From Squalus acanthias (Eukaryota), in the NCBI GenBank assembly GCA_030390025.1, contig CM059432.1:38070001-38134000 (forward strand): a DNA stretch of 64,000 bases, in the 5' to 3' direction. The notes under the pieces were generated by a model. The model worked only from the letters and a program-made list of their open reading frames with translations, was not told the origin of the DNA and made no database searches. Made by a program: the position numbers and the translations under genes. Shown here in pieces: positions 47,067 through 60,686 of the stretch. The stretch's first letter is position 1. Each line of letters opens with the position of its first letter.

Positions 47067-50000
47067 CTTCTTCTTAGGCAGTCCCTCGGAACCGAGGATG
47101 ACTTGCTTCCACACTAAAAATGAGTTCTCAGGTGACTGATGAGTCCAATGTGGGACCTACAGTCTCTGTCACAGGTGGGGCAGACGGTGGTTGAAGGGGC
47201 GGGTGGGTGGGGTGCTTGAGTTGATGTGTGCTCCTTCCGCTGTTTGCGCTTGGCTTCCGCTTGCTCCTGGCAAAGAGACTCGAGGTGTTCAGCACCTTCC
47301 CAGATGCTTCTCCTCCACTTTGTGCAGTCTTGGGCCAGGGATTCCCAGGTGTCGGTGGGGATGTTGCACTTTTTCAAGGAGGCTTTGAGGGTGTCCTTGA
47401 AGCGTTTCCTTTGCCCACCTGGGGCTCTCTTGCCATGTCGGAGCTCCGAGTAGAGTGCTTGTTTTGGGAGTCTCGTATCGGGCATGCGGACGATGTGACC
47501 CGTCCTTCAGAGCTGATCGAGCGTGGTCAGAGCTTCGATGCTGGGGATGTTGGCCTGAGCGAGAACACTGACGTTGGTGAGCCTATCCTGCCAATGGATT
47601 TGCAGGATCTTGCGGAGGCAACGTTGGTGGTACCTCTCCAGTGCTTTGAGGTGCCTGCTGCACATGGTCCATGTCTCTGAAGCATACAGGAGGGCGGGTA
47701 GCACTACTGCTCTGTAGACCATGAGCTTGGTGCTGGGTTTGAGGTCCTGGTCTTCAAACACTCTCTTCCTCAGGCGACCGAAGGCTGCACTGGCACACTG
47801 AAGGCGATGTTGGACTTCGTCATCGACGTCTGCCCTTGTTGACAGTAGGCTCCCGAGGCATGGAAAGTGATTCACGTTGTCCAAGGCCTCGTCGTGGATT
47901 TTGATAATCGGGGGGCAGTACTGTGTGGCGGGGGCAGGTTGGTAGAGGACCTTTGTCTTATAGATGTTTAGTGTAAGGCCAATGCTCTCGTATGCTTCGG
48001 TGAAGATGTTAACGATCGTTTGGAGTTTGGCCTCAGAGTATGCGCAGACGCATGCGTCGTCTACATACTGTAATTCGATGACAGAGGAAGGGACGACCTT
48101 GGATCTGGACTGGAAGCAACGGAGGTTGAACAGTTTCCCGTTTGTTCTGTAGATTAGCTGCACACCAGCGGGGAGCTTACTGAGGGTGAGATGGAGCATT
48201 GCAGCCAGGAAGATCGAGAAGAGCGTTGGTGTGATGACACAGCCTTGCTTGACCCCAGTCCGTACGTGAATTGGGTCTGTGGTGGATCCGTTGGTCAGGA
48301 TCACGGCTTGCATGTCGTCGTGAAGCAGGCAGAGGATGGTGACAAACTTTTGAGGGCAGCTGAATTTGAGGAGGACATTTCATAATCCCTCACGGTTGAT
48401 GGTGTCGGAGGCCTTTGTGAGGTCAAAGAAGGCCATGTACAGCGGTTGGTGCTGTTCCCTGCATTTCTCTTGCAGTTGACACGCGGTGAAGATCATGTCC
48501 ATTGTGCCCCTTAGTGTGCGGAATCCGCATTGCGACTCTGGGAGGAGCTCTTCAGCCACTGGGAGAAGGCGATTGAGGAGGATTCTTTCGATGACTTTCC
48601 CTGTGGCAGACAGCAGGGAGACTCCTCTGTAATTACCGCAATCAGACTTGGTCACCTTTCTTGAAGATGATCACGATTACGGCGTCTCTGAGATCCCCTG
48701 GCATGCTCTCCTCCTTCCAAATAAGATAAATGAGTTCATGTATTCACGCCAAGGACGCTCGTATCACCCTCGCCATGACAGGAGCTGACGACTGCTGAAC
48801 AGGCCACCGCCTAATCCTGTTCTGTCATCACCATCAATGTAGCCCCAAAACAGCAGCGGCAACAGAAGCAATGCCGCAGGAAAATCAACGCTGGAGCACT
48901 CAAAGACCCCACTAAGAAAGCCCTATTCAGCCTGCACCTCACAACCAACCTGACGACTCCCAGTGATTCAGAGACACAGAGTGTCCACAGCGCCTGGTCT
49001 GCACTCAAGGCCTCCATAATCAGCACCTGTGAAGAGACGCTCGGACACTCGACTACAAAACACCAAGACTGGTTCGACGAGAACGACCAGGAAATCCAGG
49101 AGCTAATAAGCTGCAAGCTCAAGGTATACCTGATCTGGAAACAGCAACAGAACTCGAGAGCAAGAAAGCAGCTCTACAGACGCCTGAAGGCCAAGGTCCA
49201 AAAAAAAACTCGCGACCTAAAGAACAGATGGTGGGTGGAGAAAGCGCAGGAGATCCAGCAGCTCGCCGACAACCACGACCATGCATGGATTCTTTAGCGC
49301 AGTCAAGACCACCTACGGCCCAAGCACCCAAGGTCCTACCCCACTGCGGGCCAAGAACGGAGAGGCAGTCAGTGCCTGCTGGAAGGAGCACTTCGAAGAT
49401 TTCCTTAACCGAGACTCTGTCTTCGACGCGAATGTCCTCAACTCCATCCCGCAGCATGCTACCCGCCACCACCTCAGCACAACCCCAGCCCAGCATGAGG
49501 TTGAAAAGGCCATCTGACAACTGAAGAACAACAAGGCCTCAGGAGCAGATGGAATCCCCGCCGAGGCGGCTAAAACATGGTGGAGAATGTAAAGTTTCGC
49601 AATTATCGCGATTCAAAATAACATAAGAGAAGCAGATTCGTTTGATCAGTTTTATTAAACGAAATGCTGTCCTGATAATAAAGGACACAGAAGCCTGTAA
49701 AATGGCCGCCTGCGCATCGTGGCAGAAGCTTCCAGAAACACAGTGGGCAGACAAAATGGCGTCGAATATACATTCAGTATAAGATTGGATCATACTCGGT
49801 AAACACTGATAAAGGCAGGATGCAACCCGTTTGCATTTGGAACAATAGCAAAGATATAAGTGCTGGAATCGTTTTCCTATGCACAGTAAGGATCATTGTA
49901 CTGGGCAATCGAAGGCCCATCCAGACACATCAATACACAAATACCCCCCCGGCTCTACAATGAGAGAGACATTGACGGGTGATTAAGCCAGTATTCGGGG

Positions 50001-51255
50001 GGCCCCAAAACCAGTCGAGGAGACGATTCATACAATCCTGGCTGGCTCAACAATGGAGAAAACATTAACGGATAGTTGGCCAGTTTCAGGTGCTACCGAA
50101 ACCCGTTAAAGAAGATAATCGCCCCATGCTGGGAGTTTTGAGCGCCAAATATTACACAAAGGATAAACATTAAGATTTGAGCGGAAGATAAGCGGACACA
50201 TCACTATAACTATAGAGAACAAATGTCCATCGCTCTCTTGATTCGACTCTTATCCTCTGGTATCGCTCTCCTGGACGGGCAGCCTCTTGATTTTCTCTCT
50301 GGACTTTGTTGACTCTTGACTCTTAGCCGTACTGGTCGGTTATTCGAGTGTTGGGTGGAGCTCAATCGGTACGAGCCGCCCCGACAAGGGCAAGTAACAG
50401 GGTACACCATCCCGAGTGTCGGTAAACGGTGTCTGGACCCGGAGGCCCGAGGAGACGAGACGAGAAGAAAACGAGAAGAAATTCCACGTGCCGCCACGGT
50501 CAGTAAACCCCGACCGCGCCCGAAAATATAAATACAGGACTTTTCTTTGAGTTCTACCGACTACAACCTGTGTCGAGCACAGGAAGACTCTTCTTTGAAC
50601 TGTGTCCGAGGTCCGTTGAGTTCTTCATGACAACAGGGAGTCTGGCCTGCTTTTCGCAGCAGCGAAAGTAAACAAGTGGGGCCAGAGACCCTTCCAAACA
50701 CGTGACAGTCAGGCGCTGCTGCGAAACGAGCTGAGTGCCTCACTTTAAAAATCTCCGAAGTAACACGAGTGGTGAGCATGTTTTCTGATCCTACAAATCC
50801 AGACGTAGTGTAGGTATTGTTAAGGGAGGGTGGTTTTAATAAGGTTAAGATATAATGTGTTCCCCTTTCTACGATGTGCCGTGTGTTCTCCATTTCCATA
50901 GACCAAGCTTTATGAATGTATGTATACTTGTACTATCTTTGATTTGCGCCTATGACATGTATTTCATGATTTTAGATGCCATGCAATAAAGATTTCCATT
51001 TTGTACTATTCAACCGGGTCTATTTGAGTTTTTCTCTGCATTACTGCTCCCTGCACCTAAGTCCAGTGTTAGAACCGTAAGGGCGAGTGGGTCGAACCAC
51101 TCACAGGTGCTTATTGCAAAAAGGGCTGGCCGGAGACCAGAGCAAGCAATAGTATAGGCAACAAAGGCCTAACCTCGCACCAGCACCGTCTGAGCACCGT
51201 TTGAAACCCCTTACAAGAAGCACTATTGACACGAATACATGAACTCATTTCTCTT
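47067..51255 (-). mobile_element. RTE LINE with 5' inversion, 11-bp TSD
   Basis: (AAG)n tail; RT segment 47067-48752 on minus; upstream APE/linker segment 48753-49587 and 51220-51255 on plus; TSD ACTTCAAAAGT at 47056-47066 and 51256-51266. Confidence 0.88.
49588..51215 (+). mobile_element. Solo LTR (1628 bp) related to element 2 LTR
   Basis: TGTA...CCCTTACA ends, AGAA TSD, collinear homology with 51422-53034. Confidence 0.92.
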
Positions 51256-51421: not shown

Positions 51422-53034
51422 TGTAGAATTCGCAATTATCGCGATTTCATTTTTATAAGGAGAAAACACAAAGTTTCGTTCAAAACAGCTTTTATTTCAG
51501 CGAAATGCTGTCAGGTTTAAATTGGACACAAGCAGCCTGTAAAATGGCCGCCGCACCGCGTGACAGAACATTCTAGACTTTTCAGCAGGCAGACAAGATG
51601 ACGTTCCAATAAACATTCTTGCAAGATCGATAACGATTCAGCACAGTGAAGACAATACACAGGACATTATGGGTTTACAGTATAAACATCGATACTGGAA
51701 TCGGTCTCCCAGGTACAAAGGAAAGCCATCAAGGGCCCATCCAAAGGACATTAATATGTAAACTCCCAACGGCTCTACGATGAGAGAGCCGTTAGCAGGT
51801 AGTTATACAGGACACTTGGAAGCCCCAAACCCCTCCAGGGGGAACGCCGACCGATTTAACAATGGGAGAGATATTAACAGGTACTCAAACATTCAGGAGT
51901 AGCCCCGAAACCCATTAAGGACAGAGATCACCCATACAGGACTTTTTGGGCGCCAAACCTTAAACAAAAGAATGGACATTGTAGTTGGGCGGGAAACGGA
52001 AGAACTGTGCACTATAATTGCAGGCCCCAAACCGTCCATTCGCTCTCTTGATTCTTGCTCTGGCCTCTTGCTCTTGCTCTTGCCTCGTGTTCTTGACTCT
52101 TGCCGCTTGTTGCTGTTATCATCGTGGCTGCTCCTGTGTAAAAGACTGTTGCAAAGACCTATGTTGGTAGCTGGCAGCGGAACCGAAGGCCCGGGATGAG
52201 ATGAGATGAGATGAGATGAGAGGAGAAGAGAAGAAGACCTTATCCATCGCCACGGTCAGTAGATCCCGACCGCGCCTGTAGGTCGATCAGCCAAGTCTTC
52301 TCGACAGGAAGTTTTCTTCTTTAACAAGACATATTGCATCAATGATAACTGGACTGTGTAAACACATCGTATCAGTGATATTGACAACGGTGCTCCACGA
52401 TTAAACTTTGAAGCCCACCAACAGAGGTCTTCACTACAGCGGACGGTCCAGCCGACTGACCGAGCAGCAGAAGCAGTAAACAAGTGAGACCAGGAGATCT
52501 CCTGACCAACACGTGGGTGCTGCGGTGAAAAACATCCGATCAGCTATTCGGGATTTCTCCGAGTTATTACGAGTGGTGAGCATGAGTCTCGGGATCCTAC
52601 GAAGCTAGTTTAGGATAGACATTGATAGGGGAGGGTTTTAAAGATTAAGGATATTTGTAATGTGTGCCCTATTTACGTTGTGCTGGTCGTTCCTCGTTTC
52701 CCTAAGAGTGATTATAACTGTTTGTAAGATTGTACTGTCATTAATCTGTGCATATGACATGTATTTCATAATTTTAAGTATCATGCAATAAAGATTTTCC
52801 ATTTCGTACCGTTCAAACCAAGTCTACATGAGTTTTACCTCCATTACTGCTCTCGCATCTAAGTCCAGTGTCTAGAACCGTAAGGGAGAGTGATTCGAAC
52901 CACTCACAGGGGTGTCTAGTGTTCCCAGACTGGCTGGAGACCAGGCCTAGACCCGCACTGACATACAGGCTGCACAGAGCCGCGTGAATCTCACAGGCTA
53001 CGAGACACGCAGGGTCAGGAGAGTATCCCTTACA
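51422..53034 (+). repeat. 5' LTR of element 2
   Basis: TG..CA; no difference from the 3' LTR seen by eye; TATA-like ~52013; AATAAA 52787. Confidence 0.97.
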
Positions 53035-53038
53035 GAAA

Positions 53039-54850
53039 ATGGCGACCGCGGCAGGACACTGGCAGCGAGAGGGTAGTGTGTTAGATTTTGGAATGACTGT
53101 ACGAAATGTGATGCAGGAAAAGATAGCGGATTATGTGTTTGGAAAGGTTAATCTAACGAAAAAGTGGATAAGCGAATTGTTAGCGGATAAGAGCCCACTA
53201 GAGGCAGCTGAAAGGTGGACGGATAGTAAGGAGCATAAAAAGGCAGTTGAGAAAGCAGTCTGGCTTATGTGCTACAAAAGGCAGGTTCAGATTTCAAACC
53301 AGACCAATACAGCGCTAACCGCTCGAATCAAGCATCTAGAGGAGGAAATGGAGGAGAAGGTTTCTGGAGGGGAGGCGCTCATTAAGAGTTTAAATGAGTT
53401 ACGCCAGGAAAGCCAGGAAGTCTCCAGTTACCTTAAAACAAGGGTAGAGTATCTCGAGTGCCAGATCACTGAAGCAAAATTAAACGAGAGTAGGATGAAG
53501 GAAAGATGTAACCGTCAAGCTGCCCAGATAAGAACTCAAGAAGAGAGCTTAATGGGGGTTAGGTCGGCGTATAAGTTGGCCCTTGAGGATAAGTTTCAGG
53601 GAGCCGACCATAGCGCCTGCGAAAAAGAGATAGAGAGCCTCAAAAGGGCCGTGAATAATGCGAACGGCATGGTGTGCCTTATTAATCCGTCGGCACGCCA
53701 GCCGCTAGTAAATGAGAGATTTAGAAATTCCCCACCAAGTAAAGCAGAAGAAGTAGTAGCCAGTGCGCCCTCCGCACCACCCAGCTATTCAGAAACCTGG
53801 GTTAGGGAGGAAGCAACGGAAGAAGCAAAAGAGCCCGTTGAAAAGGAGGTAGAAAAGGGATCGTTGTATCCAGTAACGGGTATTAAAAGGGGCCCAAGCA
53901 GAAACGGTGGGGAAGAACCGGGGGATCTCCTCGGACAGCTGGTGTTGCCTCACAGTTCACATCAGCTGAGGGCCATGATAAACCACGTAAGGAAGCTGAC
54001 CGAGATAGACGACCCTTCCGTACATTTTAGGGAAGTTGAGCAAGCCGCAGCCATCAACGGCTGCGATGATGGGGAGACAGCAAAAATGCTGCTGTTCTCG
54101 TTAGATAGCTCGGTCCTTCAGTGTCTCTCAGGCGATAGCAAGAGGGGTAATAAAAGTTATGAGGAATTGAAAAATGAGGTCCTAGAAGTAGTGGGAGCGA
54201 ACGACGGAGGTCCGTTTGCTAGAGTGGGACAGACAGTGCAGATGGAGGGAGAACCCCCGAAGGTTTTTGCCGACAGGCTGTGGCCAGTATATGAGCGCAG
54301 CTGTCTAGGTGCGCCCGAGCGCGAAGATGTGGAAGGCGCCGCTTTAATTCATTGGCTTAGGTGCATAATAGCCAACAGTTTACCAGCCGTTAGAGAGCAG
54401 GCAAAAGCCTGGTTCGATCCCAATGACCTCAACCTTACGGAAGAGTCGGTCTTGAATCGACTCACGTTAGGTTACCGTAACATAAGGGGTATGGCAACAC
54501 GTCCCTTTAAGGGGAGAGTACATGAGGTACGACCCGCAGCCCCGGCTCAGAGAGAGTGGCATCAGGAGGGTAATCGCGCCCCACAGGCAAGTAATGCCTG
54601 TTACGGGTGTGGGAAGACAGGGCACTGGCGCAAGCACTGCAGGAACCCTTGGAAGGATTCCAAGGATAAAAATCCCGCGGTCCGAACCCAGGCGCCTGTC
54701 CCGGCTAAGGAAGCAAAGGCACCCACCTCTCCCGAAGACCTCGAAGCAGTGTTAGGAGTCATGCGCAAGATGGTTTTGAATGCGCGTGGACAGGTGGCGG
54801 TCGCAACCGGCCCCGTAGGTGCCGCAGGACCGTCTAATAGTACCCCATGA
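53039..54850 (+). CDS. gag: Gag (603 aa): coiled coil, PSAPPSY late domain, capsid-like region, CCHC zinc knuckle
   Basis: CYGCGKTGHWRKHC knuckle; position directly after the PBS. Confidence 0.9.
   Translation: MATAAGHWQREGSVLDFGMTVRNVMQEKIADYVFGKVNLTKKWISELLADKSPLEAAERWTDSKEHKKAVEKAVWLMCYKRQVQISNQTNTALTARIKHLEEEMEEKVSGGEALIKSLNELRQESQEVSSYLKTRVEYLECQITEAKLNESRMKERCNRQAAQIRTQEESLMGVRSAYKLALEDKFQGADHSACEKEIESLKRAVNNANGMVCLINPSARQPLVNERFRNSPPSKAEEVVASAPSAPPSYSETWVREEATEEAKEPVEKEVEKGSLYPVTGIKRGPSRNGGEEPGDLLGQLVLPHSSHQLRAMINHVRKLTEIDDPSVHFREVEQAAAINGCDDGETAKMLLFSLDSSVLQCLSGDSKRGNKSYEELKNEVLEVVGANDGGPFARVGQTVQMEGEPPKVFADRLWPVYERSCLGAPEREDVEGAALIHWLRCIIANSLPAVREQAKAWFDPNDLNLTEESVLNRLTLGYRNIRGMATRPFKGRVHEVRPAAPAQREWHQEGNRAPQASNACYGCGKTGHWRKHCRNPWKDSKDKNPAVRTQAPVPAKEAKAPTSPEDLEAVLGVMRKMVLNARGQVAVATGPVGAAGPSNSTP
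53040..53057 (+). promoter_or_regulatory. Primer-binding site, tRNA-Arg(UCG)
   Basis: TGGCGACCGCGGCAGGAC is complementary to the vertebrate tRNA-Arg-TCG 3' end GTCCTGCCGCGGTCGCCA. Confidence 0.88.
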
Positions 54851-56011
54851 CTAGAACCGGCGCAGCCTGCCTACCTGTGTCCTTTTAAAAGACACGCACA
54901 GGAGGGGGTCTGCGGTAAGGAGGCCAGGTTAAAAGAGCAGGCCTTGCGGGAGGAGAACGCCCGCTTAATAGGGAAAATAGATGGGCTGGAAGGGCAGCTT
55001 AGAGAGCAGGCCCTGCGGGAGGAGAATGCCCGAGCAATGGGAAAGTTAGACGTGCTCAGGCTAGAAGGGCAGCTTAGAGAGATAAAAGCAGCCTACAGGG
55101 TAGCCAAAAGCAGGGAGTATGAGTATTTAAAACAGGATAGAAATCTGCAGCCTCCAGCAGGTGAGATTTCACAGAAACAAGCAGGGGCGGTGGCCTGTCT
55201 TAAGGGAGGGGCCAGACCTGCGAATGGGAAAACACAGCCCCAGGTAGGACCACAAGGCACACAGGCAGGCGTAGCAGCTTGCATCAGGGGAAGGGACATC
55301 CCGGACGATCATGCAGCGTTTTTCTGGAGTTGGGGGTTAGATGACGAAGAACCCAGGGTACCCTGGTCAGATGAGGATAGTGCAGATGAGCATAGTGATG
55401 ATGACGGGTGGTTTCAGAGGAACGGTCTGGAAGGATTGGGGCCGCTAGGTAGAGATCCATACGGGGTGGACACACAAGCTGCAGGTCCCGACAGCAGGAG
55501 GAAGGAGCTAGAGGAGGCCGGGCCAGCCGCTATGTGGTTCCCAGAGGTGTGGCCGCCCGCTTTGAACGTCCAGTCCTCAGGGGAGGCAGAGTTCGCGAGT
55601 GAAGGGCCGCCTGCTGGGCCGAGCAGGGCGGGGCCCCGAACTGCCAGCCCCGAGGTTAGGGAGGCGGAGTCAGCGGAGGCGGGGCTGGCGCCTGTGATGG
55701 AACCCCAGGTCATCCCATTGAAGGTCTCGGGACCCGGTCCGTCCGTCACGGAGCCCCCGCCCATAGCAATTCCCCGTAGGTCAAGCAGAGTACCCCAGCC
55801 CAGGAAGATGTGGTCAGGTCCACAGGCTGCCCCAGGGCGTAAGTTTCAGGTTAAGATAACCCGGGTAGAGACAGGCCACATCGAAGCAGTAACAGGCTGC
55901 GGCAGATCAGAGGAAAGGGTCAGCGCAGCAACAGGCTGCGGCAGATCAGAGGGAAGGGTCAGTGCCCTCCCACCGTCGGGAAGAGCTCGCAGCAGCCTTC
56001 TCAGGATTTAA
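54851..56011 (+). CDS. ORF X (386 codons), in frame with gag after UGA; coiled-coil and low-complexity, non-Pol
   Basis: No stop between 54851 and 56009; UGA-CUAG context; no enzymatic motifs seen. Confidence 0.7.
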   Translation, partial: LEPAQPAYLCPFKRHAQEGVCGKEARLKEQALREENARLIGKIDGLEGQLREQALREENARAMGKLDVLRLEGQLREIKAAYRVAKSREYEYLKQDRNLQPPAGEISQKQAGAVACLKGGARPANGKTQPQVGPQGTQAGVAACIRGRDIPDDHAAFFWSWGLDDEEPRVPWSDEDSADEHSDDDGWFQRNGLEGLGPLGRDPYGVDTQAAGPDSRRKELEEAGPAAMWFPEVWPPALNVQSSGEAEFASEGPPAGPSRAGPRTASPEVREAESAEAGLAPVMEPQVIPLKVSGPGPSVTEPPPIAIPRRSSRVPQPRKMWSGPQAAPGRKFQVKITRVETGHIEAVTGCGRSEERVSAATGCGRSEGRVSALPPSGRARSSLLRI

Positions 56012-56295: not shown

Positions 56296-58647
56296 ATGGA
56301 ACGACTCATAGTATTGCTCGCGGCAATCGGATGTGGATTGGCCTATCGGGGCCTCACCAAGGATGTCGTGGTGTTTGGATGTTCCGGGGACACGGCCCCC
56401 ATCGCGGTGGATGGGACCGGGAGACGGAAGGCAGAAGGGACCAGCACCTATTTCCACAAGGGAAGGTGGCCAGGATGGCTGGGAACGAACTCAACGGAGT
56501 ATTCCAGCACATCGGGGTTCGCCTACAAAGAGACTTCTTTAATGTGCCCCAAAGTACGGATCATCGCACCCAGGATCAGCGTCACCGTCGGCAAACGGAT
56601 TTGTTTGACCTGCAGTGGGAATGTCCCATTGAGCCGATGGTGGTGGCTGCGAAAGCTGAGCAAAACTATGAGGAACTCTTCGGTTGAGTGGGAGCGACTG
56701 GGTAATAATACCCATCGGACAATTACGGGGACAGATGGACAAGTGAAAGTCTGTTGGGACAAATGGTGGGAACCGGATGAGGGGATTTATGTTTGTATGT
56801 GGGGGTCAAAGTACGTTTGCCCCAAAGGCATCTCCATATTCTTTATTAACCAGTGGCAGGATAACGGACAGGGGATGAGGTGGGATGCGAGCACCAGGGG
56901 GTGCGGAGCCCCATACTCTCCGATCCCAGTAAATGCCACTGAGCTCATTACGCGCCCACGCAAAGCCCCGCCCACGATTCCGGTAGTTCTAACTGAGGAA
57001 GAAGGGTGCCCTAAAACTAGTAAGGGACCCGGGAACGGTTTGGTACTGGTCCTCACAGACCAGATACTATTTCAGGGAGTGCATTACGCGGTGGCCTCGG
57101 TGATTTTAAATCTCACTGAGGTACGGTTACCAGAGTGGTGCCCCAAAAAGACGGAACAGTTGTACCAGGTCCTGTTGACCAAGATGTTCAGGCAATTTTA
57201 CGAGTTTGATTTTGCAGAAATTGATAAGACAAGTTTATATACCGCACCGCAGGAAGTTTTGGATCAGGTGGGGAGACAAAGAAGGGGTTTGGTGAACGAT
57301 GCGTTCACTGCTTTTAACACAGGGACATCTGTGGTCAACGCTCTAGACAGTGTGGAGCTGCAGACCCAGATTAATGGTTTAAAAACACAGTTAAAGGATA
57401 TTCTTACAGATGAGAATAAAGTGGTAGGGTCGGGTCTGCACGAGGACCAAGCCATGACACTACACTTAAAGGAAATCATAGCAGAGCTGGAGAAACATGC
57501 GCGTACGGTAAATGCCCTGATTCGGGAAGATCGGAATGCATCCGATCAAGCTGCGCAGAACGAGGTGTGCGTGCTTTACGGGGCGTGGTTACTGGGCGAG
57601 GGCCGCAGTAATTTGGAGGATTTAAAACAAGGTTTGGTTCCGTCCTGGATAAGTAACAAACACCTGCGGGCGCTCCACCCTTTTCAGAACGCATTAAGTC
57701 CGTGCCAGCTCAGGCTAGCTTCAGAAGCTTACCCAGTCCCCGTGGACTGCGGACGTTCAAACCATACTATTATGGGAATAGTATTACGCATGCCGGTTTT
57801 GGGCAACACAGCAAAGCCCGCCCCGGTATATCGGGTAGAGAACATTGGTGTCATTCAGGGGGGAGCCCACATTCGTTATGCAGCGGTTCCACCTTACGTC
57901 ATCCGCTGGGAGCAAACGATGACAGGTACAGATCTCTCTGGTTGTCGTGGCAGGGGAGCACACATAATACTGTGCCCCCAGCACTTGAATGCCTTTTTAA
58001 CACCACAGTGCGGGTTCAGAACGGCTGGCGCCAAGTCCATGAATTGCACCATGGAGGCAATGGCACAAGATCATGTGCCTCCGCAGGTAGCATACATCGG
58101 GGGTGGAACATATTGTGTTACCACTGCAGCGCAACACTACCAGCATGGAAACCGTAGCCGGTGTCCGGTGAGTGACAGCAGTTTCTGTTTTAAACCCAGG
58201 GCTGAAGTTCAAGTAGCACAACAGCGAATTATCCCAATCCCTGAACCATCCACTGTTCATCTCACAGTAAAAGAGAATTTTACCGACTTGCAGCGATTTG
58301 TCGCACATTTTGGGTACCTCATTCCCCCTCTCCCTGAGCATTTAACCAAACTTCTGAAAGCCGTCGCGGTGTCACAAAAGCATTTCTATACATTAGAACA
58401 GAAAACCGTCGAGATAGGTACAGACATTTTGGACATAGTGGTTCCACCATGGTGGAATCTGTTCACGAATATTGAAGTGCCCTCATGGGTCAGAATAGCC
58501 TCCCACATTTTAGTCGTCTGTCAAGTGTTTATTGTAGTATACCTAATGTTCATACATTGTAAAAGAGACAAACGCCTCACCAAGCATGAGAACACGGGAG
58601 AGTGGCGAGAACGTTACGTGCGCGTGCACGACGAGAGCGCAGTGTAA
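56296..58647 (+). CDS. env: Envelope glycoprotein (783 aa): signal peptide, Ig-like domain, RQRR cleavage, long Cys-rich fusion subunit, TM anchor
   Basis: Splice acceptor ~56282; RQRR|GLVNDAF at 57274-57285; TM ~58495-58555; N-glycosylation sequons. Confidence 0.92.
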   Translation: MERLIVLLAAIGCGLAYRGLTKDVVVFGCSGDTAPIAVDGTGRRKAEGTSTYFHKGRWPGWLGTNSTEYSSTSGFAYKETSLMCPKVRIIAPRISVTVGKRICLTCSGNVPLSRWWWLRKLSKTMRNSSVEWERLGNNTHRTITGTDGQVKVCWDKWWEPDEGIYVCMWGSKYVCPKGISIFFINQWQDNGQGMRWDASTRGCGAPYSPIPVNATELITRPRKAPPTIPVVLTEEEGCPKTSKGPGNGLVLVLTDQILFQGVHYAVASVILNLTEVRLPEWCPKKTEQLYQVLLTKMFRQFYEFDFAEIDKTSLYTAPQEVLDQVGRQRRGLVNDAFTAFNTGTSVVNALDSVELQTQINGLKTQLKDILTDENKVVGSGLHEDQAMTLHLKEIIAELEKHARTVNALIREDRNASDQAAQNEVCVLYGAWLLGEGRSNLEDLKQGLVPSWISNKHLRALHPFQNALSPCQLRLASEAYPVPVDCGRSNHTIMGIVLRMPVLGNTAKPAPVYRVENIGVIQGGAHIRYAAVPPYVIRWEQTMTGTDLSGCRGRGAHIILCPQHLNAFLTPQCGFRTAGAKSMNCTMEAMAQDHVPPQVAYIGGGTYCVTTAAQHYQHGNRSRCPVSDSSFCFKPRAEVQVAQQRIIPIPEPSTVHLTVKENFTDLQRFVAHFGYLIPPLPEHLTKLLKAVAVSQKHFYTLEQKTVEIGTDILDIVVPPWWNLFTNIEVPSWVRIASHILVVCQVFIVVYLMFIHCKRDKRLTKHENTGEWRERYVRVHDESAV

Positions 58648-59073: not shown

Positions 59074-60686
59074 TGTAGAATTCGCAATTATCGCGATTTC
59101 ATTTTTATAAGGAGAAAACACAAAGTTTCGTTCAAAACAGCTTTTATTTCAGCGAAATGCTGTCAGGTTTAAATTGGACACAAGCAGCCTGTAAAATGGC
59201 CGCCGCACCGCGTGACAGAACATTCTAGACTTTTCAGCAGGCAGACAAGATGACGTTCCAATAAACATTCTTGCAAGATCGATAACGATTCAGCACAGTG
59301 AAGACAATACACAGGACATTATGGGTTTACAGTATAAACATCGATACTGGAATCGGTCTCCCAGGTACAAAGGAAAGCCATCAAGGGCCCATCCAAAGGA
59401 CATTAATATGTAAACTCCCAACGGCTCTACGATGAGAGAGCCGTTAGCAGGTAGTTATACAGGACACTTGGAAGCCCCAAACCCCTCCAGGGGGAACGCC
59501 GACCGATTTAACAATGGGAGAGATATTAACAGGTACTCAAACATTCAGGAGTAGCCCCGAAACCCATTAAGGACAGAGATCACCCATACAGGACTTTTTG
59601 GGCGCCAAACCTTAAACAAAAGAATGGACATTGTAGTTGGGCGGGAAACGGAAGAACTGTGCACTATAATTGCAGGCCCCAAACCGTCCATTCGCTCTCT
59701 TGATTCTTGCTCTGGCCTCTTGCTCTTGCTCTTGCCTCGTGTTCTTGACTCTTGCCGCTTGTTGCTGTTATCATCGTGGCTGCTCCTGTGTAAAAGACTG
59801 TTGCAAAGACCTATGTTGGTAGCTGGCAGCGGAACCGAAGGCCCGGGATGAGATGAGATGAGATGAGATGAGAGGAGAAGAGAAGAAGACCTTATCCATC
59901 GCCACGGTCAGTAGATCCCGACCGCGCCTGTAGGTCGATCAGCCAAGTCTTCTCGACAGGAAGTTTTCTTCTTTAACAAGACATATTGCATCAATGATAA
60001 CTGGACTGTGTAAACACATCGTATCAGTGATATTGACAACGGTGCTCCACGATTAAACTTTGAAGCCCACCAACAGAGGTCTTCACTACAGCGGACGGTC
60101 CAGCCGACTGACCGAGCAGCAGAAGCAGTAAACAAGTGAGACCAGGAGATCTCCTGACCAACACGTGGGTGCTGCGGTGAAAAACATCCGATCAGCTATT
60201 CGGGATTTCTCCGAGTTATTACGAGTGGTGAGCATGAGTCTCGGGATCCTACGAAGCTAGTTTAGGATAGACATTGATAGGGGAGGGTTTTAAAGATTAA
60301 GGATATTTGTAATGTGTGCCCTATTTACGTTGTGCTGGTCGTTCCTCGTTTCCCTAAGAGTGATTATAACTGTTTGTAAGATTGTACTGTCATTAATCTG
60401 TGCATATGACATGTATTTCATAATTTTAAGTATCATGCAATAAAGATTTTCCATTTCGTACCGTTCAAACCAAGTCTACATGAGTTTTACCTCCATTACT
60501 GCTCTCGCATCTAAGTCCAGTGTCTAGAACCGTAAGGGAGAGTGATTCGAACCACTCACAGGGGTGTCTAGTGTTCCCAGACTGGCTGGAGACCAGGCCT
60601 AGACCCGCACTGACATACAGGCTGCACAGAGCCGCGTGAATCTCACAGGCTACGAGACACGCAGGGTCAGGAGAGTATCCCTTACA
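59074..60686 (+). repeat. 3' LTR of element 2
   Basis: Direct repeat of 51422-53034 followed by CTCC. Confidence 0.97.

Follow-up and report, generated by a model that had tools for sequence, protein, structure and literature searches.

The closest described systems for the junction examined here come from alphaviruses and retroviruses. SINV and VEEV show type II readthrough of the stop codon UGA with an extended stem-loop, at a level of 6–8% in cells, and in the portion of that study available to us a smaller loop raised readthrough (PMC3159437). The type II contexts in the available sections of a 2026 readthrough review are UGA-CUA/G and UGA-CGG (PMC13517186). In the same sections, gamma- and epsilonretroviruses have a stop, in frame, that separates the zinc knuckle from the protease DTG, and use UAG, in MoMLV with a pseudoknot, and the retroviral cases with UGA (UGAAGA, UGACGA, and UGAAGU) are given with structure unknown. 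These sections hold no retrovirus with UGA-CUA or a long-range extended stem among their cases, and they describe the readthrough cis-elements of fish retroviruses as unknown. Mouse IAP 1-delta-1 is a non-autonomous element of high activity whose in-frame deletion produces a Gag-Pol fusion, and in the part of the source available this fusion protein is reported to act in cis (PMC6466679). Lokiretroviruses and Bhikhari, as far as the available parts of the sources describe them, have dual RNase H, an F-like Env, and a coiled-coil Gag (PMC7947760; bioRxiv 2024.03.25.586437).

The window analysed here is a stretch of 64,000 nucleotides from Squalus acanthias. It contains a young pol-less provirus that consists of LTRs, a primer-binding site, gag, an open reading frame called X here, and env, all on the forward strand. 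The two LTRs (51422–53034 and 59074–60686) measure 1613 bp each, run from TG to CA, and are 100% identical, and the target duplication is CTCC (4 bp). The gag gene (53039–54850) has 603 codons, ends in TGA, and encodes a coiled coil, a capsid region, and one CCHC knuckle; named relatives of Gag are those of skate, sharks, and Xenopus. The env gene (56296–58647) encodes 783 aa with an RQRR site. An Atlas feature search gave values of 0.91–0.92 to the Baculo_F and Fusion_gly clusters, pointing to an F-type fusogen, and this assignment received no confirmation from Pfam or PDB sequence searches. A splice donor for the env message at 52575–52581 is indicated by one contig of a run guessed to be RNA (X3), in which 52574 is joined to 56282 with GT..AG and 25 nt on the short side. 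The Pfam search found no enzyme domains in the element, no Rfam family matched anywhere over it, and no relatives were found in the viral and metagenome contigs searched. Genome-wide, a 22-nt pattern taken from behind the stop matches exactly at 1018 places, which puts the pol-less family at more than 1,000 copies. We analysed 70 copies, taken from 100 among the matches listed, on contigs C1 and C2, with some tandem neighbours skipped. Just upstream of the provirus (49596–51107) lie older fragments that are 72–76% like the LTR.

A preliminary description of this DNA had claimed that gag ends in TGA-CTAG and that the same frame then stays open for 386 codons. Both statements are correct: TGA at 54848–54850 is followed by CTAG, a type II context (54848–54854), and the frame runs to the TAA at 56009–56011. 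The stop is UGA-C, and not the UAG-G of the gammaretroviral type III context. A fusion of gag, read from the ATG at 53039, with X would be 990 aa long. The context was TGA-CTAG in 60 copies and TGA-CTGG in another 7 (67/70 with TGA-CT(A/G)G), and the frame was open for at least 335 codons after the stop in 59/70. Conservation of the stop context and the open frame, proposed in that description as a test, is therefore found across copies, and the comparison of copies and relatives places both features beyond chance. A genome-wide search confined to changes in the first base of the stop gave one copy; the flanks used occur with TGA in 56/70 sampled copies. Single copies have GGA (with a 1004-codon open frame), AGA, or TAA in place of the stop (L099, L170, L123), with no spread seen in the samples.

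The frame behind the stop had been regarded as a non-Pol ORF, and here the description needs revision. Codons 1–11 of X (54851–54882) correspond to the N-terminus of Pol, with 33/35 nt from the TGA matching a pol-bearing relative. At the other end, X120–386 (55207–56011) lies in the gag frame and corresponds to the post-integrase tail of Pol (Pol 1234–1507 of a relative, 78% identity). The window DNA tracks that of a pol-bearing parent to 54882 and resumes at 55207–55217. The 324 nt in the middle (54883–55206) form an insert in place of protease, RT, RNase H, and integrase; they are similar to the coiled coil in the Gag of a sister family and are partly duplicated, as seen from an internal repeat. 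In an older copy, the insert aligns to residues 130–187 of the sister-family Gag with a score of 93, which 0/300 shuffles reach. The integrase-end motif (N/D)QCK is kept by 43/59 open copies. Since X is made of the start of Pol, a Gag-like coil, and the post-integrase tail, it is a Pol remnant. A Pfam search with ORF X gave nothing significant (best E 0.01, below the cut-off), and a homolog search found none among 8000 candidates; its origin is known only through relatives in its own genome.

The parent family was located by the integrase-end motif, which gave 320 matches; 17 of the 20 that were fetched are pol-bearing parents. The closest parent is 89% identical to the window element in Gag and 96–97% in Env. 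One parent copy has 1507 open codons after the TGA, reaching through the tail, and over the first 20 nt from the stop the window is identical to one parent. Parent-type junctions (n=18) comprise 15 with TGA-CTAG, 2 with TGA-CTAA, and 1 with TAA. A sister family (Gag 42% identity; 30 loci) has TGA-CT(A/G)G at 27/29 located junctions, and where its copies carry pol, the frame continues beyond the stop into protease, RT, two RNase H domains, and integrase. In a third family (Gag 21–26%), 11 loci with TGA-CTGG and 5 with TGA-CGGG were counted among 18 with a protease match (20 fetched). These two contexts belong to two subfamilies (L217–L236) and mirror those of SINV and VEEV. No Met occurs between the stop and the catalytic DTG of the third family in the ten stretches read, all of them intact translations, and readthrough is therefore needed for Pol. 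The search for autonomous relatives with the same cassette followed by protease, which the preliminary description had recommended, was thus successful: TGA-CT(A/G)G is present and an in-frame protease comes after it. The proposed ancestral gag-pol recoding junction is likewise borne out, as the relatives' stop precedes protease, RT, RNase H, and integrase in frame. Because the pol-bearing relatives share the junction and the in-frame protease, the junction in the window is the ancestral gag-pol cassette. These relatives combine a UGA-CUA or UGA-CGG context with an essential in-frame ORF that has no other entry, as in type II readthrough, and from their sequences it is very probable that readthrough is close to required in them.

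With a helper family present and its own enzymes deleted, the window element is a non-autonomous pol-deleted ERV. Type II readthrough and the pol-deleted ERV are both known kinds. An independent pol-less lineage exists in the sister family (L064, L066, L074, L097, L098, L103), in which one ORF chains fragments of protease, RNase H, integrase, and tail, and the Pol frame is regained after each of four deletions. A junction-variant pattern aimed at helpers returned two old pol-less copies, and the matches of an RT search were all of a close sister type.

Folding of the parent and sister junctions predicts a long-range stem. The 5′ arm at +13 to +32, counted from the U of UGA, would pair with +198 to +219 within the protease gene, with core probabilities of approximately 1. 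The fold z values are −4.75 and −4.4 for two parents and −4.41 and −2.72 for two sisters. Over 29 distinct copies, 92.5% of the cells are paired vs 23–40% when the arms are slid; the changes are one-sided only, with no double changes. When parent and sister families were compared by eye at synonymous sites, the arms were not clearly more conserved than the loop. The pol-less sister lineage keeps both long-range arms, the 3′ arm in 14/15 copies. The third family has its own, different long-range stem (z −2.23 and −1.3), in which three compensatory pairs all come from one split between the two subfamilies and two other pairs are broken. By prediction, the pol-bearing relatives thus have the alphavirus-like arrangement of a conserved stem, a spacer of 8–12 nt, and a long loop, while the window has a short-loop form.

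In the window itself, the preliminary description had identified a hairpin of four helices behind a 10-nt spacer. All four were found at the positions given for them, and the minimum-energy and centroid structures agree, with a predicted energy of −27.1 kcal mol−1. Compared with shuffled sequences, z is −1.73 for 54851–54920 (10/200 as good) and −1.21 for 54841–54920 (24/200), and 88/1965 random 40-mers of the element (4.5%) give an equally low energy with the same 5′ arm. On energy alone, the predicted hairpin is only borderline. It had also been regarded as ancestral, which applies to the 5′ arm (54861–54880) alone: in the parents, this arm is predicted to pair approximately 170 nt downstream in protease. 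In the window lineage the distant arm is lost, and the same 5′ arm is predicted to pair at +50 to +67 from the U of UGA. The replacement 3′ arm (54897–54914) occurs in the pol-less lineage only and has no match in parents; a captured piece of gag, a fold-back, or the old arm may be its source. The expected conservation of the stem across copies was seen for the inner helix (paired in 69/70) but not for the outer one, which is complete in 41/70.

A variant in the 5′ arm that creates a C-G pair is present in 69/70 pol-less copies and 0/17 parents; part of this arm is fixed by the 22-nt search pattern with which the copies were collected. The three main arm types have mean stem energies of −21.6, −22.2, and −27.8 and, in the same order, median terminal branches of 0.0135, 0.0073, and 0.0043. 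The subfamily with the shortest branches, the youngest, thus has the strongest predicted stem, a pattern that would fit a stem gaining strength with time. In energy, the older local stems do not stand out, as 303/1960 and 438/1946 random 40-mers (15–23%) are as good. No double changes were seen in the local stem of the 70 copies, and the variability of the 3′ arm (1/15 columns) is not clearly lower than that of the coil (43/198).

As in alphaviruses, the junctions combine UGA-CUA or UGA-CGG with a spacer of 8–10 nt and, in the relatives, arms more than 100 nt apart, as far as the available part of that work allows the comparison (PMC3159437). Unlike in alphaviruses, the site is a retroviral gag-pol junction, the stem is only predicted, and the 3′ arm of the window lineage is a different, nearby sequence. 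A stop that is in frame and lies after the zinc knuckle and before the protease DTG is shared with gamma- and epsilonretroviruses, from which the UGA-C stop sets these elements apart (PMC13517186, available sections). The element also resembles IAP 1-delta-1, as available descriptions have it (PMC6466679), in being non-autonomous and highly active and in having an in-frame deletion with a Gag-Pol fusion, which is only predicted here. However, the IAP deletion cuts into gag and makes the fusion constitutive, whereas the element here has complete gag and env genes and retains both the stop and the recoding signal.

Since the leaky-stop signal and a predicted stem were kept after the enzymes were lost, a small amount of a fusion of Gag to the end of Pol is likely. 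We propose that in this pol-deleted, helper-dependent lineage, selected low-level readthrough gives a Gag-Pol-remnant fusion that acts in cis, and we assign this reading a probability of roughly 0.6. In the parents, the 5′ arm would pair with its partner in the protease gene. Deletion of pol would have removed this distant partner, the Gag-like insert would have provided a new one close by, and the local helix would have been lengthened by subsequent substitutions. UGA-CUAG and the predicted downstream stem probably allow readthrough by a few percent of ribosomes, a level taken by analogy from alphaviruses. The selected trait would be that a frame of Gag-Pol shape, with the sequence-tolerant tail of Pol at its end, is translated in cis and in low proportion to Gag. 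The fusion might then help its own RNA to be packaged with the helper's enzymes, as reported for the IAP 1-delta-1 fusion.

The residues of X are near neutral while its frame is kept. Among 53 measurable copies, 17/20 distinct lengths of X are multiples of three vs 12/31 in the intergenic stretch next to it (Fisher p 0.0014, with lengths that are non-independent events), and in the mostly lineage-specific part 10/11 distinct lengths are in frame (66 copies). On shared variants omega is 0.82 for X vs 0.36 for gag, and pairwise values are 0.82–1.21 vs 0.30–0.72; the N-terminal part of X gives 0.41–0.57, which is not significant. In pol-bearing copies the tail has an omega of 0.95 vs 0.19 for integrase. 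As the tail drifts equally in copies with pol, the drift of X does not mean that the protein is idle. In the gag and tail trees, pol-bearing and pol-less copies interleave; the outgroup root of the gag tree, placed on two long and broken branches, was left out of the reading. Helpers can therefore be the source of the stop context and of the tail frame. Drift and recombination with helpers together keep one rival in play, that readthrough is needed in the helpers and pol-less copies simply recopy gag, junction, and tail, so that the local hairpin would be incidental and Gag-X a by-product. The interleaved trees, the 20 nt from the stop shared with a parent, an omega of X near 1, and the weak hairpin statistics all agree with such recopying. 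Helper recombination can explain part of the conservation, but not the frame of the insert, which is mostly specific to the lineage. Moreover, the second pol-less lineage holds both arms and the frame across four deletions, and changes specific to the window lineage add pairs, and we consider the recopying account unlikely.

Low-level readthrough can protect RNA from nonsense-mediated decay. Ribosomes crossing X might shield the unspliced genome in this way, in which case any open frame would suffice and a frame held while residues drift would be expected; the available sections of the review treat a link between readthrough and decay of retroviral RNAs as open (PMC13517186). This account seems quite unlikely to us, as the tail drifts equally in pol-bearing copies and both pol-less lineages have retained the Pol tail itself in frame. 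Production of X by a spliced message, stop-start reinitiation, or frameshifting is highly improbable. The element does splice, judging by the X3 contig, whose run is presumed to be RNA, and in most copies an ATG overlaps the stop (ATGA), but this frame ends after 13 codons in window and parent, the first Met of X is codon 63, and the third family requires in-frame entry at the stop. The early closure of the ATGA frame rules out stop-start reinitiation. No splice joint into X occurs in the contigs of four runs guessed to be RNA, which does not count as absence.

Several traits of lokiretroviruses recur here: dual RNase H (by Pfam on a sister copy), an F-like Env (by feature search), the RQRR cleavage site, and a coiled-coil Gag. 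Bhikhari differs from the window element in having gag only, according to the available part of its description (bioRxiv 2024.03.25.586437). In the available supplement of PMC7947760, 4/4 separately annotated loki gag genes end in TGA-CTA(G/A). For Loki-Bsp in this supplement, inspection by eye shows the gag frame continuing into the motif that starts other annotated loki pol ORFs, and this continuation suggests unreported readthrough. The available main text of PMC7947760 does not mention readthrough, and we found no open-access paper linking lokiretroviruses with it.

The RT of the pol-bearing relatives lies nearer to the RTs of MLV and foamy viruses than to that of Ty3 and is 42–43% identical to frog and coelacanth elements. 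In a tree built with no labelled loki, snakehead, or foamy RT, its clade is one with dual RNase H (100/100); it lies apart from the class I-like group and beside the frog and coelacanth elements. A snakehead-like and a loki placement are both compatible with this tree. A wider proposal is that aquatic-vertebrate retroviruses broadly, this clade and lokiretroviruses, express Pol through UGA-CUR/CGG readthrough of the alphavirus type, including a long-range stem, and that a pol-less parasite of theirs re-evolved and tuned the stem to dose a Gag-tail fusion with a coil from the Gag of a rival family. This combination is doubtful; if true, the dosed fusion would bias assembly or packaging toward the parasite. 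The families supply concrete, testable cassettes, and their natural series of long loop, short loop, and weak and strong short stems bears on why defective retroelements retain recoding signals after enzyme loss.

The primer-binding site (53040–53057) matches tRNA-Arg(UCG); at 3/3 loci scanned, its complement lies in a host gene called as tRNA-Arg(tcg). The snakehead retrovirus also uses a tRNA-Arg primer, and tRNA-Arg(UCG) is near-cognate for UGA. The first in-frame ATG of gag overlaps the primer-binding site (53039–53057). The tRNA-Arg(UCG) genes lie in tandem arrays with a spacing of approximately 1.6 kb on contig C26 (approximately 38.9–42.2 Mb), with 427 pattern matches genome-wide.
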